From NCBI GenBank assembly GCA_963734535.1, contig CAVTHS010000008.1, positions 480,001 through 544,000 of the forward strand: a DNA stretch of 64,000 nucleotides, written 5' to 3'. The notes beneath the pieces were generated by a model, which saw only the letters and a list, made by a program, of their open reading frames with translations, searched no databases and had not been told where the DNA came from. This document shows, piece after piece, positions 4,137-19,304 of this stretch (the stretch's first letter is position 1; each line of letters starts with the position of its first letter). The DNA is from an uncultured Chloroflexia bacterium (GTDB lineage Bacteria; Chloroflexota; Limnocylindria; Limnocylindrales; CSP1-4). The translations under genes were made by a program, and so were the position numbers.

Positions 4137-5164
4137 GCGGCGTTCCTCTTCGCTGGGCGGCCGAACCGTCGGCGCGGAATGGCGGTTCCCGGGTCGCCGC
4201 TGACGTCTGCCGCGGGCCCATCCTCGGCGCGATGGCCCGTCAGCGCCAGGAACACGTCGTCCAGGCTGGGCCGGTGGAGCGACAGCTCCGCGATCTCCAG
4301 CCCGGCCCCGTCGACGCGGCGAACCACCTCGGCCAGGGTCCCCGCGCCGTGGTGGACGGGGAGGTGGATTCGGCCTTCGACGGCATTCGCCCGCGGCTCG
4401 GCGGCCGTGAGCGAGCGCAGGAGCTCCATCGCCTCGGCGGTACGGGCGGGATCCGCGACGCGAACATCGACGACGTCCTCGCCCAGGCGGTCCTTGAGCT
4501 CGTTGGCAGTCCCTTCCGCGATCAGGAGGCCGTCGTCGATGACGGCGATGCGGTTCGCCAGCCTGTCGGCCTCTTCCAGGTACTGCGTGGTCAGGAGGAT
4601 TGTCGTCCCGTCCATGACGAGGCCCTCGATGACATCCCATAACCCGAGCCGGCTGGCCGGATCGAGCCCGGTCGTCGGCTCGTCGAGGAAGAGGACCTGC
4701 GGGCGGCCCACCAGGCTCGCAGCAAGGTCCAGGCGGCGGCGCATGCCGCCGGAGTAGGTACGGGCGGGTCGGCCGCCGGCGGCGAGCAGGTCGAACGTCG
4801 CGAGCAGCTCGTCGGCGCGAGTCCGCGCGGCGGGCCCGCCGATGTGAAGCAGGCGGCCGACCATCTCGAGGTTCTCGTGGCCGGTGAGGTTCTCGTCGAC
4901 GGCTGCGAACTGTCCGCTGAGGCCGATGGCCGCACGAACGGCATCCGGCTCGTGCACCACGTCGTGACCGGCGACGGTCGCCCGGCCGCCGTCGGGGTGC
5001 AGGAGCGTGCTGAGGATTCGGACCGCGGTCGTCTTCCCGGCGCCGTTGGGGCCGAGCAGGCCGAGGATGGTGCCGGCCGGCACGGCCAGGTCGATCCCCC
5101 GCAGCGCGTGGACGTCACCGTAGGACTTGCGAAGTCCGTCGGCGGAGATGGCGAGCTCGAGCAT
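4133..5164 (-). CDS. ABC exporter ATP-binding protein (DrrA-like)
   Basis: Walker A GPNGAGKT, YSGGMRRRLDLA, LFLDEPTTGLD, TTQYLEEAD, PSLDDVFL. Confidence 0.92.
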   Translation of the reverse strand: MLELAISADGLRKSYGDVHALRGIDLAVPAGTILGLLGPNGAGKTTAVRILSTLLHPDGGRATVAGHDVVHEPDAVRAAIGLSGQFAAVDENLTGHENLEMVGRLLHIGGPAARTRADELLATFDLLAAGGRPARTYSGGMRRRLDLAASLVGRPQVLFLDEPTTGLDPASRLGLWDVIEGLVMDGTTILLTTQYLEEADRLANRIAVIDDGLLIAEGTANELKDRLGEDVVDVRVADPARTAEAMELLRSLTAAEPRANAVEGRIHLPVHHGAGTLAEVVRRVDGAGLEIAELSLHRPSLDDVFLALTGHRAEDGPAADVSGDPGTAIPRRRFGRPAKRNAA

Positions 5165-5250
5165 GTGGTCCTCGTGGTCTGACGTCGTCGATGTGCGGCC
5201 GTCACTCCTTCGTTCGGTCGACACGGTCGCGCGGATGGCGATGCCGCGTC

Positions 5251-5269
5251 ATGACGGCCCGTAATGACG
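5251..5269. promoter_or_regulatory. putative operator ATGACG-N7-ATGACG (copy 1)
   Basis: ATGACGGCCCGTAATGACG; same pattern at 5867 and 18429. Confidence 0.5.
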
Positions 5270-5325
5270 GTCCGGGGTTGTGCGGAGAAACTGCCCGGAC
5301 CTCGGGGGGCACTGCCGTGCAGGCA

Positions 5326-5385
5326 CGAGCCGCGCTCGCCGTGTACGCACGAGCCGCGGTCGCCGCACGATCGAGCCGCGGTCGC
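5326..5385 (+). repeat. three copies of CGAGCCGCG(C/G)TCGC
   Basis: copies start at 5326, 5350 and 5372. Confidence 0.75.
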
Positions 5386-5402
5386 GAGAGGGGAGAAACG
5401 CC

Positions 5403-5438
5403 ATGCCACAGCCACCATCGACGCTCAGCTGGAGCTAG
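5403..5438 (+). CDS. putative 11-aa peptide MPQPPSTLSWS
   Basis: GGAG Shine-Dalgarno upstream; peptide matches the N-terminus of the 5986 protein (PQPPSSLSWS) with mostly synonymous differences. Confidence 0.5.
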   Translation: MPQPPSTLSWS

Positions 5439-5521
5439 CCGAGTCCAGCCACCTCCCGCTGCGTCCGCGCTGCGCCCGCCCGGCGCGCCTGGCCCGCAGC
5501 GCTGCGCCCGCTGCATCTGCG

Positions 5522-5595
5522 CTGCCCTGCCCTGCTCTGCCCTACCCTGCTCTGCCCTGCTCTGCCCTGCTCTGCCCTGCTCTGCCCTGCCCTGC
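5522..5595 (+). repeat. pentanucleotide microsatellite (CTGCC/CTGCT)n, about 15 units
   Basis: ctgccctgccctgctctgccctaccctgctctgccctgctct... read directly. Confidence 0.9.
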
Positions 5596-5866
5596 TAGAT
5601 ATCGGCTCGGCCGATCGGATCCGGGACCTCGAGCGTGGAATCGCGCCGAACGTCGACGTTGGCCGCGACCCGGAGCGTGGAGAGCGTGATCCTCATCGGC
5701 AGGCCCGATATCCGCGCGATTTCGACTCGGCGAGCGCCTGGCGCGCCTCGACTCGGCGCCCGACCCGTCGAGCGACTGGCGTGCCGCCCGGGTGATGCGC
5801 GGAGCGCCCCCAGGGCGCACGGCGGCTGTGCCCGCGCGTCCCCGCCCCGGGTGACGTGCCGAGCAA

Positions 5867-5885
5867 ATGACGCGGCGTCATGACG
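5867..5885. promoter_or_regulatory. putative operator ATGACG-N7-ATGACG (copy 2) upstream of sugar ABC operon
   Basis: ATGACGCGGCGTCATGACG, containing the inverted repeat ATGACG-N3-CGTCAT. Confidence 0.5.
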
Positions 5886-5985
5886 AGGCGGCAGCGGGGC
5901 GCGACACTCGCCGACGCCACCGGAACGCTCTTGTCGCACCTTTGAGACCGGCCCGCTCCGTGCATGCGCACCCGGGGAGACGGAC

Positions 5986-7344
5986 ATGCCACAGCCCCTG
6001 CCGCAACCTCCATCCTCGCTGAGCTGGAGCAATCGAACCCGCGGACGACCCATCCGCATCGCCGCCGTCCTCGCCGGCGTCGCCCTCCTCGTCGCGAGCT
6101 GCGGCACGAACGCCGGCACCTCCGGGCCGGGCGCATCCGCCAGCCAGGGCGCCGCCAGCCAGGGCGCCGCCAGCCAGGCGCCGGCCATCAGCCCGGCCGC
6201 GGCGGTCAGCGGGACGCTGACGGTCTGGGCCATGGGCAACGAGGGGGTCAAGCTCAAGGACCTGGCCGCCACGTTCATGAAGGACAACCCGGGCACGACG
6301 GTCAACGTGACGCCGGTCGACTGGGGCCAGGCCGTCGCGAAGCTCCAGACCGCCATCGCCGGCCACCAGACGCCCGACGTGAGCCAGATGGGCACCGACA
6401 TGATGGGCCAGTTCGCGGCCACCGGCGCCCTCGAGGCCGTCCCGGCCAACTTCCAGGCCAGCACCTTCTTCACGAGCGCCTGGAACACCAACATCGTCAA
6501 CGGCACGGTGTACGGCGTTCCGTGGTACGTCGAGACACGGGTCCTCTACTACCGCACGGACATCGCTGCGAAGGCCGGCATCACGACGCCCCCCGCGACG
6601 TGGGACGACCTGACGGCGATGGCCACCGCGATGCAGGCAAAGGGCGGCGCGAAGTGGGGCATCTCGCTGGGTACGCAGAACTGGCAGGAGTACCTGCCCT
6701 TCCTGTGGTCGAACGGCGGCGACGTCATGGACGCGTCGGGCCAGTTCCAGCTGAACAGCCCGCAGGCCGTCGAGGCACTGACCTACTACGAGTCGTTCTT
6801 CAAGGCAGGCCTGACCCCGACGTCGGTGCCCGCAGGGTTCGACATCACGCCGGCGTTCGTGGCCGGGACGAACCCGATGTTCTTCTCGGGTCCGTGGCAC
6901 CTGGGCCTGATCAAGACCGCGGGTGGCGCGGGCTTCGACTCCAAGTGGGCGATCGCGCCGATGCCGAAGAAGGTCAGCTCGACCTCGTTCGTGGGCGGCG
7001 GGAACATGGTCGTCTACAAGGACAGCCAGAACAAGGACCTCGCCTGGAAGTTCGTCCAGTACCTCTCCGACCCCAAGACGCAGCTGGCGTGGTACGCGGA
7101 CGTCACCGACCTTCCCGCCGTCCAGGCGGCCTGGGACGACCCGGCCCTCAAGGCTGACGCGAACGTCGCGCTGTTCGGCGAGCAGCTGAAGGACACCAAG
7201 GCGCAGCCGGCAACCTCCACGTGGAGCCAGCTGGCAACCGCGCTCAACGGAACGCTCGAGAAGATGACGACCGGCGGCATGGACCCGAAGGCCGCGGCCG
7301 ACGAGATGCAGCAGGAGGCAACGACGATCGGGACGGGCCAGTGA
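5986..7344 (+). CDS. sugar ABC transporter substrate-binding lipoprotein (family 1)
   Basis: lipobox LVASC; PDVSQMG, YGVPWYVETRVLYYRTD, MFFSGPW, SFVGG motifs. Confidence 0.92.
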   Translation: MPQPLPQPPSSLSWSNRTRGRPIRIAAVLAGVALLVASCGTNAGTSGPGASASQGAASQGAASQAPAISPAAAVSGTLTVWAMGNEGVKLKDLAATFMKDNPGTTVNVTPVDWGQAVAKLQTAIAGHQTPDVSQMGTDMMGQFAATGALEAVPANFQASTFFTSAWNTNIVNGTVYGVPWYVETRVLYYRTDIAAKAGITTPPATWDDLTAMATAMQAKGGAKWGISLGTQNWQEYLPFLWSNGGDVMDASGQFQLNSPQAVEALTYYESFFKAGLTPTSVPAGFDITPAFVAGTNPMFFSGPWHLGLIKTAGGAGFDSKWAIAPMPKKVSSTSFVGGGNMVVYKDSQNKDLAWKFVQYLSDPKTQLAWYADVTDLPAVQAAWDDPALKADANVALFGEQLKDTKAQPATSTWSQLATALNGTLEKMTTGGMDPKAAADEMQQEATTIGTGQ

Positions 7345-8297: not shown

Positions 8298-9176
8298 ATG
8301 ACTGCCATCCCGGCTGCCGCGCCGGCCCCCGCTGCTCCGCTCTCGGCGCCCGGTCGCGGCCGGACGACGCCGAACCGGTGGATCTACCTCCTCCTCGTCG
8401 GTGGGCTCGTGCTCATGGTCGGGCCGTTCCTGTGGATGCTCCTCGGCTCGATCAAGCCCCAGGCCGACTTCCTCACCGCGCCGACGCTCCTGCCGTCGGT
8501 GCCGACAACCGACAACTACAGCCGCCTGTTCGACCAGCTCGACTTCCCGCGCTTCTTCTTCAACTCGTCCCTCATCGCGCTGGCCGTCACGATCGGCAAT
8601 CTCGTCTTCTGCCCGATGCTGGGCTACGCGCTGGCAAAGCTGCGCTGGCGCGGCAAGCGGGTGATCATGGGCCTGGTCCTGGCCACGCTCATGGTTCCGG
8701 CCGGGATCACGCTCATCCCGAACTTCATCCTGATGAGCAAGCTCGGGTTCGTGAACACCTACCCCGGCCTGATCCTGCCGTTCCTCGCCGGGCCGTTCGG
8801 CGTGTTCCTCATGCGCCAGTTCATGTACGGCGTACCGAACGAGCTGCTCGAGGCGGCACGCATGGACGGTGCCAACGAGTTCCGCGTCTTCTGGTCGGTC
8901 GTCGTCCCGATCGCGACGCCGGTCCTCGCCACGCTCGGCATCCTCACCTTCCTGGGCAACTGGAACAGCTTCCTCTACCCGCTGGTCATGGCCCAGGAGC
9001 CCCAGATGTACACGCTGCCAGTTGCGCTCGCGACGTTCGCGACGGGCCAGTACCAGGCCGACCACGGGATGCTCATGGCGGGCTCGGTGATCCTGGTCGT
9101 ACCCGTGCTCATCGTCTTCATCCTCTTCCAGCGCTGGATCACGGAAGGAATCGCCACGACCGGCCTCAAGGGCTGA
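8298..9176 (+). CDS. carbohydrate ABC transporter permease 2
   Basis: ELLEAARMDGANEFRVF, WNSFLYPL, FQRWI-EGI--TGLKG. Confidence 0.92.
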   Translation: MTAIPAAAPAPAAPLSAPGRGRTTPNRWIYLLLVGGLVLMVGPFLWMLLGSIKPQADFLTAPTLLPSVPTTDNYSRLFDQLDFPRFFFNSSLIALAVTIGNLVFCPMLGYALAKLRWRGKRVIMGLVLATLMVPAGITLIPNFILMSKLGFVNTYPGLILPFLAGPFGVFLMRQFMYGVPNELLEAARMDGANEFRVFWSVVVPIATPVLATLGILTFLGNWNSFLYPLVMAQEPQMYTLPVALATFATGQYQADHGMLMAGSVILVVPVLIVFILFQRWITEGIATTGLKG

Positions 9177-9238
9177 ACGCGGCGACGGCGGCGAACGCCC
9201 GCGGTGAGAACCGCGACGACCGACAACGGAGGTTTCTG

Positions 9239-10804
9239 ATGCCCATCCGTCGGCGCGTGCCCCGGCCAGTCGCGTTCATCGTCGGTCTCATCGCGGTCGT
9301 GCTGGTCCTGCCCAACATCTCGCTGGCCGCGACTCCCGTCCCGAGACCGGCGAGGTCCGCCGTCTTCAGCGTGACCGGGCAGGCGCGGGATCAGCAGACC
9401 CTGCTCCGGTACGCCCGCGCAACCTGGGCGTCATTCGTCGCAATGACAGATCCGAAGAGCGGCCTGCCGGCCGACAGCCTCTCGTCGGACGGCACGACCA
9501 GCGTCCAGACGTCCACGACGAACATCGGCGCCTACCTGTGGAGCACCGTTGTCGCCGACAGGCTCGGGATCATCACCCACGCCGACGCGGTGAAGCGTCT
9601 CAGGCGAACGCTCGCCTCGCTCGAGACGATGGAGCGCTACTGGCCCGGCGGCCAGTACTACAACTGGTACGACCACACGACGGGTGCCAAGCTCACACTC
9701 TGGCCGCCGACCGGCCTGCCGATCAACCCGCCGAATGGCCCGATCCTGTCGTCCGTCGACAACGGCTGGCTCGCCACCGGCCTGCAGGTCGTGGCGAACA
9801 GCGTCCCGGAGGTCGCGGCGCGCGCCGGGGCGCTCTTCGACAGCATGGACTTCGGCTTCTACTACCGGCCGGCCGTCAACCGGATTGCCTTCTTCTATGC
9901 GCCCGGCAACGGTGCATCGGACTGCTGCTACGACACGATCGTGAGCGAGAGCCGGATCTCGAGCTACATCGGGATCGCCACGGGGAAGATCCCCCCGAAG
10001 GAGTACTACGGCTCCTGGCGGACGTTCCCGGACACCTGTGACTGGAGCTGGCAGGAGACGAAGCCGATCGGCGTCACGCGGACGTATCTCGGCGTGAGCG
10101 TCTTCGAGGGGGCCTACCCGTACGACGGGATGCGCATCGTCCCGGGCTGGGGCGGCAGCATGTTCGAGGCGCTCATGCCGGACCTCTTCGTGCCCGAGGA
10201 CCAATGGGGGCCGAAGAGCTGGGCGATCAACCATCCCCTCACCGTGGCCGCCCAGATCCACCACGGGCTCGTGGACGCCGGCTACGGCTACTGGGGCTTC
10301 TCCCCTGCCAACATCCCCGAGGGCGGCTATCACGAGTACGGCGTCGATGCGCTCGGACTGAACCCCAGCGGCTATCCCTCGAACGAGGACGGCACGTTCG
10401 TCGATCCGGGCTTCGCAGGCTGTCCCGGTCGCGACCCGGCGCCGGACCCGAAACCGAAGGCCTACACCAACGGCGTGGTCACCCCTCACGCATCGTTCCT
10501 CGCCCTGCGCTTCGCGCCAGCCGCCGCGATCGCGAACCTGGCCAGGCTCGAGCGCAACTTCGCGATCTACGACAAATGGGGCTTCCACGACTCGGTGAAC
10601 GTGGGGACGGGGAGGGTCTCGGACTCGTACCTGTCGCTCGACCAGGGCATCATCATGGCTGCGATCGGTAACGCGCTTGGTGGCGACATGCTGCGCCGCG
10701 CGTTCGCGACCCGGCAGTTCCAGCGGGCGCTGGAGCCGGTGATCTCCATCGAGCAGTTCAACGCCAGCGCGGGCGACCGCGTCACCCAGCTCGTCCTCCC
10801 GTAG
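9239..10804 (+). CDS. secreted GH144-like (glucoamylase/DUF3131 family) probable endo-beta-1,2-glucanase
   Basis: signal peptide; TSTTNIG-Y, YNWYD, SSVDNGWL, SESRI-SY, WGGSMFEALMP, WGFSP, VVTPHASFL, YLSLDQG; GGAGG RBS. Confidence 0.8.
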   Translation: MPIRRRVPRPVAFIVGLIAVVLVLPNISLAATPVPRPARSAVFSVTGQARDQQTLLRYARATWASFVAMTDPKSGLPADSLSSDGTTSVQTSTTNIGAYLWSTVVADRLGIITHADAVKRLRRTLASLETMERYWPGGQYYNWYDHTTGAKLTLWPPTGLPINPPNGPILSSVDNGWLATGLQVVANSVPEVAARAGALFDSMDFGFYYRPAVNRIAFFYAPGNGASDCCYDTIVSESRISSYIGIATGKIPPKEYYGSWRTFPDTCDWSWQETKPIGVTRTYLGVSVFEGAYPYDGMRIVPGWGGSMFEALMPDLFVPEDQWGPKSWAINHPLTVAAQIHHGLVDAGYGYWGFSPANIPEGGYHEYGVDALGLNPSGYPSNEDGTFVDPGFAGCPGRDPAPDPKPKAYTNGVVTPHASFLALRFAPAAAIANLARLERNFAIYDKWGFHDSVNVGTGRVSDSYLSLDQGIIMAAIGNALGGDMLRRAFATRQFQRALEPVISIEQFNASAGDRVTQLVLP

Positions 10805-10816
10805 CGCCTCGCTCAG

Positions 10817-12787
10817 ATGCCGAGGCACCGTCTCCCTCGCCGGCCGGAGGGCAACACCGCCCCGGGCCCGGATTCCGCGACTGGCGCGCTTCCCGAGGGC
10901 CTGGGGCCATCGGCCAGCTCGGCCCGCATCGCCTGGTTCGCCACGCTCGGGGCACGAACCGAGCGCGACCGGCCGGCGCCGCCCATCTCGCTTCCGCCGC
11001 CTGGGCACGTTCGGGCCGTGCGCGGGCGCGGCCAGGTGACGATCGACTGGTCGCCGGTGGCGGGCGCGGCCGGCTACCTGGTCCACTTCGGCTCGTCGGC
11101 CGACGGCCCGTTCGAGCCGATCGACCAGGGCGGCGGCGACGTCCTCGCCGTCCCCCACGGACCGTACCTCGACACGACGCGCCGGCCGCACGGGAAGGCA
11201 AAGGCGCGGGGACGGGCGTGGTATGCCGTCTCGAGCCTGCCGACGATCGAGGCGGAGGGAGGCGCGCTCTCGACGCCCGTCCGACCCCGAAAGGGCCCGG
11301 CCGACGCGGCCGTCACGATCCGCGTGAACGCGAGCCAGGCCATCGGGCCCGTCGCGAAACCCTGGCGCCCGATCATCGGCTCGGAGCACCTCGCCATGCT
11401 GCTCCGGGGGCCGGGACCTGGCGGCCACGACGTCGGCGCAGAGCTGGCCGAGGCGTTCCGGATCGCTCGTCGCGAGCTCGGCACGGAGGCCGTGCGGGCG
11501 CACGCCATCCTCGACGACTCGCTCGCGGTCTACCGAGACGCGGGCGACCGGGCCGACCACGACTTCTCGACGGTTGACCAGGTCCTGGACCGGCTGCTCG
11601 AGACCGGCGTCCGGCCGATCGTCGAGCTCTCGTTCATGCCGCGCGACCTCGCGGCCGAGCCCGGGAAGACCGTGTTCGACTACGGCGCGATCATCTCGCA
11701 GCCGCACGACCTCGGTCGGTGGGCCGCCCTCGTGCGCGACCTCGCCGCCCACCTGGCCGATCGATACGGCCACGAGGAGGTGCGCCGCTGGGCATTCGAA
11801 GTCTGGAACGAGCCGAACCTCTGCGTCTTCTGGGCCGGCGCCGAGTCCGACTACCTCCAGCTCTACGACGCGAGCGTCCGGGCCGTGAAGTCCGTTGACC
11901 AGGGATTCCGCGTCGGCGGCCCGGCGACCGCGGCCGCGGGCTGGATCGACGATCTGCTCGAGCATTGTCGGGCGAACGACGTCCCCATCGACTTCATCTC
12001 CACCCACACGTACGGCCTTCCGCCGCTGGATCTCCGGCCGGTCACCGCCCGCTTCGGAACGCCCGACATGCCGCTGTGGTGGACGGAGTGGGGCGTCAGC
12101 CCGCGAGATGGCGCTGCGATCAACGACAGCGCCTGGGCCGCGCCGCTCGTCGCGCGGGGCATGCGTTCGGCCGCCGGCCGGCTCGAGGCGCTCGCCTACT
12201 GGGTCGCGTCGGACCACTTCGTCGAGGGCGGCGACGCACCGAGGCTCTTCCACGGCGGGTTCGGCCTGCTCACGATCGGCAACCTCCGCAAGCCCCGATT
12301 CTGGGCGATCGCGATGCTCGACCGGCTCGGCCAGGACGAGCTTGCGTGCGACCTCGAGGGGGACGGCGCGGGCTCGCTGGTGGAAGCGTGGGCCTCCCGC
12401 GACCCCGACGGCAGGATCGCGATCGCCCTCTGGAACGGGACGCTCGACCAGTCCCGGGGCGCGGTGGTGCGGACGCTCCGTCGGTCGGTCACCCTCCGGG
12501 TCGACGGGCTGCGACCGGGCCGGTACGAGCTCCGGCACCGCCGGGTTGACGCCCGGCACTCGAACATCGCCCGGACCTGGAAGCGACTCGGGCGGCCCGA
12601 CTGGCCCGACGACGCGGGCTGGGCGCGTCTCCGCGCGGCCGACCATCTCGAGACCATCGGGAAGAAGCACACCGTTCGCGCCAAGCGGGGACGCCTGACC
12701 CTGGAGCTCGAGCTGCCGATGCCGGCGATCTCGCTCGTCGAGCTCGTCCCGATCAAGCGCTGGAGCGACCGTGTCGCTGGTCGCTGA
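10817..12787 (+). CDS. GH39 glycoside hydrolase with N-terminal FN3-like domain
   Basis: VRAH-IL-DD, VELSFMP--LA, FEVWNEPN (acid/base), RVGGP, DFISTH-Y, WTEW (nucleophile), FHGGFGL. Confidence 0.85.
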   Translation: MPRHRLPRRPEGNTAPGPDSATGALPEGLGPSASSARIAWFATLGARTERDRPAPPISLPPPGHVRAVRGRGQVTIDWSPVAGAAGYLVHFGSSADGPFEPIDQGGGDVLAVPHGPYLDTTRRPHGKAKARGRAWYAVSSLPTIEAEGGALSTPVRPRKGPADAAVTIRVNASQAIGPVAKPWRPIIGSEHLAMLLRGPGPGGHDVGAELAEAFRIARRELGTEAVRAHAILDDSLAVYRDAGDRADHDFSTVDQVLDRLLETGVRPIVELSFMPRDLAAEPGKTVFDYGAIISQPHDLGRWAALVRDLAAHLADRYGHEEVRRWAFEVWNEPNLCVFWAGAESDYLQLYDASVRAVKSVDQGFRVGGPATAAAGWIDDLLEHCRANDVPIDFISTHTYGLPPLDLRPVTARFGTPDMPLWWTEWGVSPRDGAAINDSAWAAPLVARGMRSAAGRLEALAYWVASDHFVEGGDAPRLFHGGFGLLTIGNLRKPRFWAIAMLDRLGQDELACDLEGDGAGSLVEAWASRDPDGRIAIALWNGTLDQSRGAVVRTLRRSVTLRVDGLRPGRYELRHRRVDARHSNIARTWKRLGRPDWPDDAGWARLRAADHLETIGKKHTVRAKRGRLTLELELPMPAISLVELVPIKRWSDRVAGR

Positions 12788-15700
12788 GCCGCGAGCACCG
12801 GTTGCCGAGGCGCGACCGAGGGTCGCCGACCGACGGCGCACGGGGGACCCGCGCCCGCCCATGGCCGCCGAGCTGCGAAATCGGTCGGGCCTCTCCATCG
12901 AGCTCCTCGAGAACGGCGCGGTCTTCGCGATCCGCCACCGCGAGATCCTGGTCAGCCAGGTGCTCGGGAGCCCCGTCGAGGGCGGCCTCGGCAACATCTA
13001 CCTCCGTCGCCGGACACCCGACGGCATCACCGCCTTCCCGTTGCTGGGGCCCGCAGCGCCGGGCAGCTTCCGGGCGTCCCGCCACGGCGCGGTCTGGGCG
13101 GGATCGGTGGACGGGCTCGACTACTCGTGCACGCTGCGTCTCGCAGCGCACCAGCCGACATGGTTCTGGACCCTGCGGCTCGCCAACGCCACCACCCGGC
13201 GCCTGCGCCTCGACGCCGTGCTCGCCCAGGACCTGGGGATCGCGAACAAGGCCGCGGTTCGGAGCAGCGAGCTGTACACCAGCCAGTACATCGATCACAC
13301 GATCCTCGAGGACGAGGGCCTCGGGTTCCTGGTCTGCTCGCGACAGAACCTTCCCCAGGGCGACGCGTATCCGTGGATCATGCACGGCTGCCTCGATGGC
13401 GCGGTCGGGTACCTGACCGACGGGTTCCAGCTCTACGGCCTCGGCTACCGGGCAACGAACGTTCCGGCTGCCCTCGTCCGCCCGAAGCTGCCGAACCGGA
13501 ACTACCAGCACGAGTTCGCGCTGCCGACGCTCCAGTCGGCGAGGCTGTCGCTCGCGCCCGGGGGGATCGGCGAGATCACGTTCTTCGCTGCCTTCGAACC
13601 GGACCACCCGGACGCCACGAGCGCCGCAGACGCGGGACGCGTCATCGCGGCCCGGGCCGCGTTTGCGAGCCGTCGCTCCGGCACGATCCCCCGGACACCG
13701 CGTCCCCGCCCGGCCGGCCTCTTCGATTCTCCGGTCATGTTCGAGAGCGAGGATCTCGGGGAGGCCGATCTCGAACGCTACTTCGGGCCGGAGTGGCGTC
13801 ACGTGGAGAAGCGCGACGGGACGCTCCTCTCGTTCTTCCACGGACGCCAGCAGCACGTCGTGCTCAGGGCGAAGGAGCTCCTCGTGGAGCGACCGACCGG
13901 GCACATCATGCAGTCCGGGCGGAACCTGTTCCCGAGCGATGACATCCTGTCCGCCACGGCCTGGATGTGCGGCGTCTTCGGCTCCCAGGTCACGATCGGC
14001 AACACGTCGTTCAACAAGCTCCTGGGCGCGTGTCGCAATCCGCTCAACGTGCTCAAGACCAGCGGCCAGCGCATCTTCGTGAAGGCCGAGCGGGGCTGGG
14101 AGCTGCTGGGCCTCCCGTCGGCATTCGAGATGGGACCGACGAGCGCACGCTGGATCTACCGGGGCGGGCGGACGACCATCTCCATCCGCGTCGCCGTCGC
14201 GCTCGACGCGCCTGCCTGCCGCCTGGCCGTGGAGGTCGAGCGCGGCGGCCCGCTCGAGCTTCTCATCAGCCACGACGTGGTCCTCGGCTCGAACGAGCAC
14301 GACGCGAAGGGACAGGTGATCACGGACGCGGCCGCCGGATTCGTCGAGCTGCGACCCGCGCCCGACGGGCAGCTCAGCCGGCACTATCCCGCGGCGACCT
14401 TCTTCATCGTCTCTCCGGACGCGGAGCAGATCGAGGTGATGGGCGGGGACGAGCTCCTCCGAGATGGCGAGGTTGATCGCGGCGGATCACACGTCGTCGT
14501 GAAGACCAGGCCCGTCTCGCGCTTCTCGCTCGTCCTCACCGGCAGCATCCTGGGCCGGGAGCGGGCCGCCGAGCTGGCGACGGAGTACGGCCACGAACCG
14601 GACCCAGGACCGGACCTGGACGGCGACGCGAACGACTCCTCGTCGGTCGTGGGGCGGCGGGCGGTGCTCGGAGGCGCAACCGGGCGGTGCGCCGACGACC
14701 TGGCGCGCCTCGACGACGTGCTGCGCTGGTACGTCCACGACGCGATGATCCACTACACCACTCCGCACGGGCTCGAGCAGTCGAACGGGGCGGCGATGGG
14801 CCTGCGCGACGTCTGCCAGGGCCCCGTGGAGCTCCTGGTCGCGACGCGAAACCTGCGACCGCTGCGCGACCTGATCCGGCTCATCTACGAGCACCAGGAC
14901 AGGCGGACCGGCGACTGGCCGCAGTGGTTCATGTTCGACCGGTACCGCGAGGTGCGGGCCGACGGCAGCCACGCCGACATCATCCACTGGCCGATCAAGG
15001 CGCTGTGCGATTACGTGGAGGCGTCGGGCGACCTCTCGATCCTCGACGAGCAGGTCGCCTGGACGGATGCCCGGACGAAGACGGTATCAGCCGAGACCGA
15101 GACGATCCTCGCCCACACGGAGCGGCAGATCGCCCGGATCGAGGACGACTGCATCCCGGGCACGGCGCTCCCGGTCTTCGCCGGGGGCGACTGGGAGGAC
15201 ACGCTCCAGCCGGCCGACCCGGCGATGGCCCTGCGGCTGGTCAGTGCCTGGACCGTCGAGCTCGCCTACCAGACGCTCGGCCGGTATCGAGCGGTCTGCG
15301 CCCGGGCGGGACGGGGTGCAGTCGTGGAACGTCTTGCCGGCATCTGCGGGCGGATGCGGTCGGACTTCAACCGCCACCTCGTCCCCGGCGGCGTGGTCGC
15401 CGGGCTGGCCTGGTTCGGCCCGGACGGCGTCGAGTACTTCCTCCACCCGCGCGATCGCAGGACCGGCGTTTCGTATCGGCTGCTGCCGATGACGCGGGGA
15501 ATCATCAGCGGGATGTTCAGCCCAGAGCAGGCCCGCCGGCATGTCGCGCTGATCGAGCGCCATCTCTCGTTCCCGGACGGCGTGCGGCTGATGAACCGGC
15601 CGATGGACTATCACGGCGGCACGTCGCGCATCTTCAAGCGCGCCGAGAGCGCGGCGTGCTTCGGGCGGGAGGTCGGGCTCCAGTATGTCCACGCCCACAT

Positions 15701-16262
15701 TCGCTACGTCGAGGCGATGGCGCGGATCGGCCGGCCCGACGAGGCGTTCCGGGGCCTCCTGGCCGTCTGCCCGATCCTGCCCGACCTCGACGTGCCAGCG
15801 GCCCTCCCCCGCCAGGGCAACGCCTACTTCAGCAGCTCCGATGCCGCGTTCATGGACCGCCGCCAGGCGAGCCGCCAGTTCGGCCGCATCCGGACCGGGC
15901 GGGTGGGAGTCCGGGGTGGGTGGCGCGTCTACTCCAGTGGACCCGGCATCTGGATCAACCAGGTGATCTCGAATGTGCTGGGCGTGCGAACCTCGTTCGA
16001 CGACGTGGTGCTCGACCCGGTGCTTCCCCGGCGAGCCGACGGGTTGACCTTCGACTTCGAGTACGAAGGCCGCCCGGTCCGCTACCTCTACCACGTCGCC
16101 GGAGATGGGTTCTCGCCCCGGGAGGTCCGCGTCAACGGCCGGCCAGTGCAAGGCGGCCGGTACGCGGAGAATCCCTATCGACCGGGCGGCATGCTCATCG
16201 CGAAATCCTCCTTCGGGGCGGGGCTCGATCGCCACGAGAACCTGGTCGAGATCTTCGTCTGA
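12771..16262 (+). CDS. GH94 phosphorylase, 1,2-beta-oligoglucan phosphorylase (SOGP)-like; start may be 12861
   Basis: Y-SQYIDH, SRQN-PQ, IHY--PHGLEQ--GAA-G-RDVCQGP-E, WPQWFMFD, SH-DII-WP, GDWEDTLQP, GLQYVHAHIRY, YFSSSD, GWRVYSSGPGI. Confidence 0.85.
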   Translation: MSLVAEPRAPVAEARPRVADRRRTGDPRPPMAAELRNRSGLSIELLENGAVFAIRHREILVSQVLGSPVEGGLGNIYLRRRTPDGITAFPLLGPAAPGSFRASRHGAVWAGSVDGLDYSCTLRLAAHQPTWFWTLRLANATTRRLRLDAVLAQDLGIANKAAVRSSELYTSQYIDHTILEDEGLGFLVCSRQNLPQGDAYPWIMHGCLDGAVGYLTDGFQLYGLGYRATNVPAALVRPKLPNRNYQHEFALPTLQSARLSLAPGGIGEITFFAAFEPDHPDATSAADAGRVIAARAAFASRRSGTIPRTPRPRPAGLFDSPVMFESEDLGEADLERYFGPEWRHVEKRDGTLLSFFHGRQQHVVLRAKELLVERPTGHIMQSGRNLFPSDDILSATAWMCGVFGSQVTIGNTSFNKLLGACRNPLNVLKTSGQRIFVKAERGWELLGLPSAFEMGPTSARWIYRGGRTTISIRVAVALDAPACRLAVEVERGGPLELLISHDVVLGSNEHDAKGQVITDAAAGFVELRPAPDGQLSRHYPAATFFIVSPDAEQIEVMGGDELLRDGEVDRGGSHVVVKTRPVSRFSLVLTGSILGRERAAELATEYGHEPDPGPDLDGDANDSSSVVGRRAVLGGATGRCADDLARLDDVLRWYVHDAMIHYTTPHGLEQSNGAAMGLRDVCQGPVELLVATRNLRPLRDLIRLIYEHQDRRTGDWPQWFMFDRYREVRADGSHADIIHWPIKALCDYVEASGDLSILDEQVAWTDARTKTVSAETETILAHTERQIARIEDDCIPGTALPVFAGGDWEDTLQPADPAMALRLVSAWTVELAYQTLGRYRAVCARAGRGAVVERLAGICGRMRSDFNRHLVPGGVVAGLAWFGPDGVEYFLHPRDRRTGVSYRLLPMTRGIISGMFSPEQARRHVALIERHLSFPDGVRLMNRPMDYHGGTSRIFKRAESAACFGREVGLQYVHAHIRYVEAMARIGRPDEAFRGLLAVCPILPDLDVPAALPRQGNAYFSSSDAAFMDRRQASRQFGRIRTGRVGVRGGWRVYSSGPGIWINQVISNVLGVRTSFDDVVLDPVLPRRADGLTFDFEYEGRPVRYLYHVAGDGFSPREVRVNGRPVQGGRYAENPYRPGGMLIAKSSFGAGLDRHENLVEIFV

Positions 16263-18392: not shown

Positions 18393-18428
18393 TGCCGCGC
18401 CACGGTAGACCTGTCCGGATGGCATGTC

Positions 18429-18447
18429 ATGACGGCCCTTCATCACG
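18429..18447. promoter_or_regulatory. putative operator (copy 3) upstream of response regulator
   Basis: ATGACGGCCCTTCATCACG; GTCATGACGGCCC identical to 5248-5260; CATAAT -10-like box at 18482. Confidence 0.45.
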
Positions 18448-18524: not shown

Positions 18525-19304
18525 ATGGACGGACGCGTGAAATCACCCCCTATCGAAGCCCGCCGAGCCCTGCTGCTCCACGATCGCCCGCTGATGGTGA
18601 ATCTCATCACCCTGACGCTGAACCACGGCGTGTTCGACGTCCGGGCCGCGAGCAGTTTCGCCGAGGCGAAGGCGATCATGGCGGAGTGGCGCCCGAACAT
18701 CTCCCTGATCGACATGGACCACGACGACAGCACGGCGCTCCTCAAGCTCCTGGGCGCCTCCAACGCGATGCGGAGAATCGGGACGCCGGTCCTCGGGCTG
18801 ACCACGAGGGGCGACCTCAGGACGAAGCTCGCAGCGTTCGACCTCGGCGTCGACGACATCCTGGCAATACCCTTCTCGCCCGAAGAGCTGCTCGCGCGCA
18901 CCATCGTGATCACGAGGAGGTCGTTGGGCGTCGACCTGCCGCTCATTCCCGTCATCCGGCTCGGCGAGATCGACGTCGACATCGTCAACCGCGAGGTGCG
19001 CGCGGGCACCTCGGTCGTGCAGCTGACACCGATCGAGCAGAGCCTGCTCTACCTCCTGGCCAGCTGCGGTGGTCGCGTCGTGACGCACGAGGAGATCCTC
19101 GACGCGATCTGGGGCACCGACTTCGTGGCCGAGAGCAACATCGTCGACCGCCACGTCCGGAGCCTGCGCGTCAAGCTCCATGACGACTACAGGCATCCGC
19201 GCTTCATCGCGACGGTCCAGAACAAGGGCTACCGCTTCATCCCAACGTTTTCCGACGCCGGGTCGGGTGAGGCGCCGCACGCGAGCGGGCACGCCCGCAA
19301 CTGA
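18525..19304 (+). CDS. OmpR/PhoB family response regulator (orphan, atypical receiver)
   Basis: receiver plus winged helix (LTPIE--LL-LL, IWG, SNIVDRHVRSLR-KL, FI-TV--KGYRF). Confidence 0.88.
   Translation: MDGRVKSPPIEARRALLLHDRPLMVNLITLTLNHGVFDVRAASSFAEAKAIMAEWRPNISLIDMDHDDSTALLKLLGASNAMRRIGTPVLGLTTRGDLRTKLAAFDLGVDDILAIPFSPEELLARTIVITRRSLGVDLPLIPVIRLGEIDVDIVNREVRAGTSVVQLTPIEQSLLYLLASCGGRVVTHEEILDAIWGTDFVAESNIVDRHVRSLRVKLHDDYRHPRFIATVQNKGYRFIPTFSDAGSGEAPHASGHARN

Follow-up and report, generated by a model that had tools for sequence, protein, structure and literature searches.

Why should an 11-codon open reading frame (ORF) that repeats the N-terminus of a sugar-binding lipoprotein stand by itself upstream of the lipoprotein gene? 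We addressed this question in a 64,000-nucleotide stretch of contig CAVTHS010000008.1 (the window) from an uncultured Chloroflexia bacterium, whose assembly comprises 3.2 Mb in 14 contigs of 71 to 73% G+C; the window is high-GC DNA. The source genome is called G000 here; other G numbers are genomes of its genus (42 in all), and L numbers are further orthologous loci. The small ORF (the mini-ORF) reads ATG CCA CAG CCA CCA TCG ACG CTC AGC TGG AGC TAG. A sequence-only reading of the window had placed MPQPPSTLSWS* at 5403-5438 behind a GGAG ribosome-binding site, and both can be read directly from the letters, with the Shine-Dalgarno (SD) GGAG 7 nt 5' of ATG 5403. The analyses below suggest that the mini-ORF is probably functional and, by homology, that it is a small upstream ORF born from a stub of the gene it precedes. 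That it serves as a cis-acting leader peptide on its own transcript is a possibility that we favor tentatively.

The likeness between the mini-ORF and the start of the lipoprotein, which is the solute-binding protein (SBP) of an ABC importer, exceeds chance. The degenerate coding pattern for PQPPSxLSWS matched twice in the window, compared to 0.01 matches expected from 100 shuffles, and these two matches were the sole ones in the 3.2-Mb genome. Recounting the 10 shared codons gave the six differences reported before, five of them synonymous third-position changes and one a first-position change (T/S). The SBP protein begins MPQPLPQPPSSLSWSNRTRGRPIRIAAVLAGVALLVASCG at 5986. No in-frame ATG, GTG, or TTG other than ATG 5986 occurs from the preceding stop, which ends at 5883, to the lipobox Cys; since this ATG is the only possible start, the PQPPS-type motif belongs to the lipoprotein, as had been read, and a later start is excluded. 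Direct reading of the sequence gives a charged n-region, a hydrophobic core, and a lipobox Cys (RTRGRPIR-IAAVLAGVALLVA-SC-G), the layout of a Sec/SPII signal peptide; most of the 120 listed homologues repeat it, and the predicted starts of a few are truncated or placed differently. The n-region lacks the twin Arg of a Tat signal, Pfam gave SBP families alone (E up to 0.001), and NCBIfam matches to GanS, MalE, and UgpB were each below cutoff.

Across the SBP family, the N-terminal extension follows M-x-Q-x-x-S-T-x-R-x-S-x-R-A-R-G-x-P-x-R-F ahead of the hydrophobic core. SW[ST] occurs in the N-terminus of 5 of the best 120 SBP homologues (for example, MPHPRPQPPSGLSWSN, MLQPPPQPPSTLSWSNQARG, and MLQPPSTPSWSN), and in many others, the layout is kept but W is replaced by R or another residue (for example, STSRRSSRARS and SPWSSRARG). 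By these alignments, PQPPSxLSWS is one lineage's version of an Arg-rich extension common to the whole family. Codons 1 to 16 of the SBP gene differ between G000 and G045 by nine synonymous and two nonsynonymous changes (proportion of synonymous differences [pS], 0.83; of nonsynonymous differences [pN], 0.054), compared to a pN of 0.255 over codons 17 to 40 and 0.071 over the whole gene. This low pN indicates that the extension is translated and constrained. The finding also points to a long, conserved, Arg-rich extension ahead of the signal peptide across a family of sugar-binding lipoproteins, for which we know of no role.

Homology between the two sites extends beyond the coding sequence. 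Each ORF is preceded by a promoter-like palindrome (P' for the mini-ORF and P for the SBP gene; Table 1), in keeping with the upstream DNA motif noted earlier as common to both: GATGCCGCGTCATGACG (5240) matches GACGCGGCGTCATGACG (5869). The stretch from P' to the mini-ORF ATG aligned to SBP leaders far above shuffles, best with those of the G022/L033 type (z, 5.4 to 10.6) and more weakly with G000's own SBP leader (z, 1.6 to 4.0). Similarly, an ungapped alignment pairs the 11 codons of the mini-ORF with codons 1 to 11 of the L033 allele, MLQPQSTLSWSS, relative to which G000's own SBP gene has four extra codons. Homology to the parent gene's 5' end therefore includes noncoding flanks, as is expected of a relic. 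The 90 nt after the mini-ORF aligned to SBP codons 12 onward no better than shuffles (z, -1.0 to 1.1), and a 7-nt match to L033 after the stop (AGCCGGG) was rejected as chance on the same scores. As judged from homology, these alignments show the mini-ORF to be the head of a second, older-looking copy of the SBP gene's 5' module, comprising the palindrome, a -10-like box, leader, SD, and the first 11 codons of an L033-like allele. P' lies ∼90 to 100 nt from the start of the divergent ATPase gene on the left, and the single SBP promoter motif of G022 is found at that same place. The older module thus stayed upstream as a second one came in or arose by duplication, and either course is possible. 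The earlier suggestion of one motif used both free and fused thus gives way to common descent, in place of a motif recruited twice. Gene conversion was rejected as the cause of the likeness, as copy-specific synonymous codons are common across genomes. For example, the Leu codon is CTC in mini-ORF copies and CTG or TTG in SBP copies, so the copies have not been homogenized by conversion.

To place the mini-ORF among relatives, 87 orthologous loci were examined (7 from genomes and 80 from metagenomes); the SBP N-terminus was readable in 72, and 46 of these had at least 700 nt upstream. An SBP orthologue (E up to 1e-100) was found in 8 of the 42 genomes of the genus, and the coding pattern, with one mismatch allowed, in three (G000, G023, and G045). 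The mini-ORF was intact in 4 of the 46 loci (G000, G023, G045, and L028). All four carriers are among the seven loci of this set with an SWS-type SBP N-terminus, and none of the 39 non-SWS loci carries the ORF. The other three SWS-type loci (L030, L031, and L033), each with at least 2 kb upstream, lack it, so that joint occurrence of free and fused forms, as had been envisaged, is not the rule. In a 47-row tree built from the mature SBP, sequences with SWS-type N-termini fell into more than one clade, and the trait required four changes, a count in which G045, itself SWS-type, was scored as "other." Outside the genus, 80 of 109 matches to P-x-x-L-SWS plus stop in species-representative genomes were examined, and none had an SD, an ATG, and the peptide. 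All carriers of the four copies seen so far are uncultured soil or peat organisms known from assemblies alone.

The substitution pattern of the mini-ORF sets it apart from its surroundings. Among G000, G023, and L028, 0 of 36 sites vary (36/36 nt identical), compared to 37 of 207 ungapped columns (18%) plus 32 gapped columns in the flanks and five sites in the first 48 nt of the SBP gene. The longest invariant run (39 nt) contains the mini-ORF; another invariant run of 34 nt lies at the left end, and long invariant blocks are thus not unique to the mini-ORF. Synonymous divergence (dS) is 0.17 between G000 and G023; with G045 it is 0.43 for the SBP gene and 0.64 for the ATPase gene. Contigs of four DNA runs were compared with the locus; those of runs X4 and X8 cover 5393-5468 and contain no other letters within the mini-ORF, and a contig of X8 departs from the window at 5439, directly after the stop. 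In G045, the mini-ORF reads MPEYPSTLSWS*. Eight of its 36 bases differ from those of G000, and the ATG, TAG, length, and last seven residues (PSTLSWS) are kept, as is GGAGA, which all four mini-ORF units retain. The last seven codons show three differences between G000 and G045, all synonymous; codons 3 and 4 differ in sense (QP versus EY). Conservation is strongest at the C-terminus, with PSTLSWS plus TAG identical in all four carriers (four sequences, three of them close), and it ends at the stop in G000, G023/L028, and G045.

In simulations with six random substitutions in 30 nt, at most one amino acid change resulted in 0.3% of trials. With eight random substitutions, the ORF survived intact in 20% of trials, and in 0.017% the last seven residues were unchanged as well; at per-site divergences of 0.25, 0.33, and 0.43, this joint figure was 0.23%, 0.02%, and about 0, values that overstate the significance by a small factor because the last seven residues were chosen after the data had been seen. 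Unlike those of a neutral relic, the substitutions are not blind to codon position, and start, stop, and frame are not decaying. Third-position changes with a kept start and stop are the pattern expected of a translated sequence. Together with the changes in SBP codons 1 to 16, the simulations bear out the sequence-only reading in its claim of selection on the peptide rather than decay of a duplicate, and the four sequences are suggestive of purifying selection on the mini-ORF. Complete invariance among the close relatives may leave room for a constraint on the nucleic acid too. If the constraint on the peptide is real, this locus would be a clear natural case of the birth of a new small ORF, in which the 5' end of a gene survived rearrangement and was then selected.

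Which residues are kept bears on how the peptide might work. The PP pair is lost in the G045 mini-ORF (PEYPS) and in the SBPs of L031 (PQPD), L051 (PQPA), and L033 (no PP). Since PP(X) is conserved neither in the mini-ORF nor in the SBPs, a polyproline pause dependent on elongation factor P was rejected, and the leader sensitive to this factor that had been put forward earlier is unlikely.

If amino acids are conserved in an ORF this short, its product can act in either of two ways: in cis, as a nascent chain in the ribosome, or in trans, as a released peptide. Conserved bacterial ORFs of 5 to 25 codons with C-terminal conservation are mostly cis-acting leader peptides, and the mini-ORF resembles these in being a short ORF with a ribosome-binding site, on the same strand as and 5' of other genes. 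We tentatively favor the cis mechanism, on the transcript from P'. After the locus was rearranged or duplicated, the mini-ORF stayed intact, with a promoter and ribosome-binding site of its own; it would be translated, with selection acting on its C-terminal PSTLSWS and stop. PSTLSWS in the exit tunnel would slow release at the UAG, and the paused ribosome would cover the first bases past the stop, which begin a C-rich, G-poor tract with the look of a Rho-loading site. The pause would then govern whether transcription from P' continues into the genes downstream, namely, the SBP operon in G000 and G045 and a 127-codon membrane-protein ORF in G023, L028, and L029. In the lipoprotein, the same residues are no more than part of the conserved Arg-rich extension of the signal peptide. 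The ratio of C to G after the stop is as expected of a Rho-loading site in G000 (1.5 to 2.35) and G045 (1.3 to 1.83), relative to 95th and 99th percentiles of 1.52 and 1.85 in the window.

Several observations weigh against this leader mechanism. Past the stop, G000, G023/L028, and G045 have unrelated sequences, and G023 and L028 have no C-rich tract there (C/G, ∼1.0), so the tract is present in two of the four carriers. Because nothing downstream of the stop is conserved, a cis mechanism would need a different readout in each genome. With a promoter copy of its own, the SBP gene can dispense with read-through from P'. Three of the seven SWS-type loci and all 39 non-SWS loci manage without a mini-ORF. 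To our knowledge, PSTLSWS resembles no arrest motif, and a literature search on leader and arrest peptides, covering those of actinobacteria or upstream of solute-binding proteins, returned nothing alike and no PSTLSWS motif. In addition to the post hoc choice of residues in the simulations, the statistics rest largely on G045, as three of the four carriers are nearly identical.

The trans alternative, to which we give little probability, is a stand-alone micro-gene whose free 11-mer mimics the N-terminal extension of the lipoprotein and competes for the cytoplasmic partner of that extension (a targeting factor, protease, or regulator) or for a binder of the cleaved signal-peptide fragment. 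The conserved parts of the unit are exactly what such a gene would need (promoter, SD, ORF, and stop), with nothing kept past the stop in three downstream contexts. The pattern of changes points to the peptide, the matching lipoprotein residues are under purifying selection (the nine synonymous versus two nonsynonymous changes above), and all carriers are of the SWS type, although this co-occurrence is expected from descent alone and three SWS-type loci lack the ORF. A precedent is described in enterococci, in which a peptide is found both fused in a lipoprotein signal peptide and free as a rival (PMC7117660). The first residues after Met vary, however (PQP versus PEY), and the peptide has no known partner. 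Bacteria very rarely have functional soluble 11-mers that come straight from the ribosome. A fuller version, in which this ribosomally made micro-peptide, born by partial gene duplication, tunes the export or expression of sugar uptake by competition, seems very unlikely. The mini-ORF may instead be a neutral by-product of rearrangement or duplication, without function of its own and intact through youth, chance, or hitchhiking, an explanation that is unlikely but that the locus itself invites: the spacer varies from 220 to 1,180 nt, L051 has another 5' stub, comprising 13 codons of the 127-codon ORF, the ORF that stands behind the stub in relatives is gone from G000, and the stub is absent from 42 of the 46 loci. 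Neutral drift would nevertheless have had to spare an intact ORF with the same last seven residues, which occurred in at most 0.23% of simulations over divergences of 0.25 to 0.43, to leave 0 of 36 sites variable against 18% in the flanks, and to preserve the SD, ATG, and TAG in G045.

The conserved 36 to 40 nt could also act as DNA or RNA (an early-transcribed operator, an RNA hairpin, or a target site), with the ORF incidental and the same element carried by the parent gene in its first codons. Invariance of the synonymous sites in the close relatives, compared to five variable sites in the first 48 nt of the SBP gene, would fit such an element, as would AGCTGGAGC, which every mini-ORF copy shares unchanged with the SBP copies of G000, G023, G045, L028, and L030. 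The SBP copies of L033 and L051, however, have AGT for the first Ser of SWS, and changes at third codon positions, both between G000 and G045 and between mini-ORF and SBP gene, give a 3-nt periodicity that fits coding. RNAalifold pairs CAGC with GCTG inside the ORF, but the hairpin has one pair fewer in G045. The consensus fold of leader' (the mini-ORF leader) plus ORF across the four carriers has 20 pairs with one compensatory change, and its covariation term (+0.31 kcal/mol) gives no support; a conserved RNA structure here was set aside as too weak to claim. Searches of 5000-6300 against Rfam gave no family at E up to 5. On balance, an element of this kind is rather improbable, and what probability remains belongs to an explanation not yet thought of.

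Among known systems, the mini-ORF would work most like a bacterial leader peptide, although a conserved downstream readout, a defining trait of that class, was seen at most in part, as the C-rich tract of two carriers. Leader peptides that invite comparison are TnaC, which acts with Rho, and the short Erm, Cat, and Cml leaders. As in leader and arrest peptides, a short ORF with its own SD stands before other genes, and conservation is strongest from the C-terminus to the stop; as in tnaC, a C-rich tract follows the stop, here in two carrier genomes. Unlike leader peptides, the mini-ORF has no conserved downstream attenuator, the gene downstream has its own promoter, the motif differs from those of the RAPP/RAGP type and of TnaC, and the peptide is paralogous to the N-terminus of the downstream gene. 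Sec/YidC-related arrest peptides of bacteria are the subject of two papers (PMC7897499, PMC10987492). A stub-derived leader of this kind was not found in the literature on leader and arrest peptides in actinobacteria or before solute-binding proteins. The mini-ORF resembles 5' gene stubs, a class of pseudogene fragments, in the homology over promoter, leader, SD, and first codons, in its rearranged surroundings, and in the presence of a second stub in L051. It differs from them in a substitution pattern of constrained coding rather than decay.

Enterococcal sex pheromones sit in lipoprotein signal peptides, and plasmid-encoded inhibitor peptides are similar to them (PMC7117660). In that system, the pheromone consists of the last seven to eight residues, which are hydrophobic, ahead of the lipobox; it is exported and sensed outside after cleavage by Eep, and the inhibitor is made from a longer precursor. 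In both cases, a short peptide occurs in a lipoprotein signal peptide and also comes from a separate small gene of similar sequence. Here, however, the shared residues are the hydrophilic residues 6 to 15 before the h-region, the free form (11 codons, with no hydrophobic stretch) lacks an export signal, and no receptor is known. Because the enterococcal system uses the hydrophobic end of the signal peptide and export, the mini-ORF is not a member of it; were the micro-peptide mimic true, it would be an intracellular counterpart of the pheromone and inhibitor logic. For the extension itself, human PTPRJ is reported to have an N-terminally extended signal peptide with an Arg-rich, translation-attenuating stretch (PMC7725344). 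The SBP family likewise has a long N-terminal extension with several Arg before the hydrophobic core, conserved across homologues, whereas the PTPRJ case is eukaryotic.

The spacer between the ATPase and SBP genes differs in length among relatives. It measures 220 nt in G022, where it holds one motif at the place of P' in G000, 576 nt in G045, 821 nt in G000, and 1,180 nt in G023. By this comparison, the locus is a rearrangement hot spot. In G000, P' comes first in the spacer, followed by leader' with its 24-nt repeat and then the mini-ORF; behind these come C-rich repeats (5457-5596), the 115-bp stretch, P, and the SBP leader (Table 1). The CTGCC tract can also be read as a 15-mer repeated 5.3 times. 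Together with the CGCTGCGCCCG-like repeats before it, the tract stands where relatives have the 127-codon ORF, and G045 has neither. G023 has the 115-bp stretch, and L028 and L029 lack it; because G000 has a single copy, the stretch is not shown to be mobile. Within G000, neither the P'-to-mini-ORF unit, nor the 115-bp stretch, nor the repeat tract has a match besides itself. An extra copy of the 127-codon ORF separates the two modules in G023, L029, and L028, where it is frameshifted; in G023 and L028, it starts 108 nt after the mini-ORF. Members of its family were found in 33 of the 42 genus genomes, mostly right behind a small membrane-protein gene, and the ORF has a conserved C-terminal half resembling two membrane helices, with no Pfam match. 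In L051, a 13-codon stub of this ORF (MRITKSRRRHREP*) was seen at ∼250-300, 5' of the SBP promoter motif, which makes it a second example of a 5' gene stub at the locus.

Table 1. Features of the mini-ORF locus and its neighbors (window positions unless another locus or contig is named)
Feature	Coordinates	Strand	Description
DrrA-type ABC ATPase gene, divergent left neighbor	4232..5164	-	Pfam ABC_tran, DrrA1-3_C; NCBIfam TIGR01188 drrA, 359.8 bits (cutoff, 312)
P', promoter-like palindrome, upstream copy	5251..5268	+	ATGACGGCCCGTAATGAC; invariant in G000, G023, and L028; kept in G045
-10-like box after P'	5287-5292		GAAACT
Leader' of mini-ORF	5269..5402	+	24-nt tandem repeat 5314-5385 (3.1 copies); SD GGAG 5392-5395
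Mini-ORF, 11 codons plus TAG stop	5403..5438	+	Translation MPQPPSTLSWS*
C-rich, G-poor spacer of short tandem repeats	5439..5596	+	CGCTGCGCCCG-like 5457-5511; CTGCC x16 5517-5596
115-bp stretch	5598..5712	.	Bounded by 18-nt inverted repeats GATATCGGCTCGGCCGAT / ATCGGCAGGCCCGATATC, 83% complementary
P, promoter-like palindrome beside SBP gene	5867..5884	+	ATGACGCGGCGTCATGAC
-10-like box after P	5903-5908		GACACT
SBP leader	5885..5985	+	GGAG at 5976-5979
Sugar-binding lipoprotein of ABC importer (SBP)	5986..7344	+	452 aa; Pfam SBP_bac_1 1.3e-48, SBP_bac_8 5.3e-45
Lipoprotein signal peptide	5986..6102	+	16-residue extension MPQPLPQPPSSLSWSN (5986-6033), Arg-rich n-region, h-region, lipobox LVASC; Cys is codon 39
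Two permeases			Right of SBP gene
PF10091/DUF3131 protein	9176-10804		After the permeases
GH39 protein	10817-12787		
Protein with SOGP phosphorylase domains	12771-16262		
127-codon ORF family members	L002 678-1061; L029 38-421; G000 C3:28512-28871		

To the left of the spacer, an ABC-2 permease gene adjoins the DrrA-type ATPase gene. The SBP gene and the genes to its right form a sugar-uptake and breakdown operon, in which the set of DUF3131, GH39, and SOGP proteins (9176-16262) is typical of the use of beta-1,2-glucan or oligosaccharides.

The palindrome recurs widely. It lies 116 to 119 nt 5' of the SBP ATG in all seven orthologues measured, and ATGAC-N5-GT[C/A]ATGAC, with at most one mismatch, matched 22 times over the two strands of G000, equivalent to ∼18 places because palindromic sites count twice. 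In many cases, [C/G]ACACT follows after 18 to 19 nt, with a gene start behind it. The palindrome is a predicted promoter or activator site of a regulon; other genes behind it presumably encode small membrane or stress-like proteins, judging from how the peptides look. A response-regulator gene of the OmpR family (18525-19304) is itself preceded by a palindrome at 18426-18443, and orthologues of this regulator (76% and 70% identical) are the immediate upstream neighbors of the SBP gene in L030 and G046. These sites and the OmpR-family protein may constitute a regulon with its regulator. Scans of 5100-6100 for sigma-70-type promoter and intrinsic-terminator consensus sequences gave 0 sites.

Both leaders contain local patterns of their own. 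The 24-nt repeat of leader' has one unit fewer in G023 and L028, and a contig of run X4 skips 5308-5402. In the SBP leader, a 35-nt block at 5903-5937 (GACACTCGCC...CTTGTCGC) is invariant in five close sequences, with varying bases adjoining it, and may have a regulatory role in the SBP mRNA or promoter; GGGAGACGGAC 5' of the ATG is likewise invariant. The SBP orthologue of G018 (L006, G018:C13) matches in two frames with internal TGA stops and is either a broken gene or an assembly error. Within the G000 lipoprotein gene, a 15-nt tandem repeat (6137-6183; 3.2 copies) encodes ASQGA-type repeats of the linker. Its copy number differs between relatives, and a contig of run X4 has 15 additional bases there.

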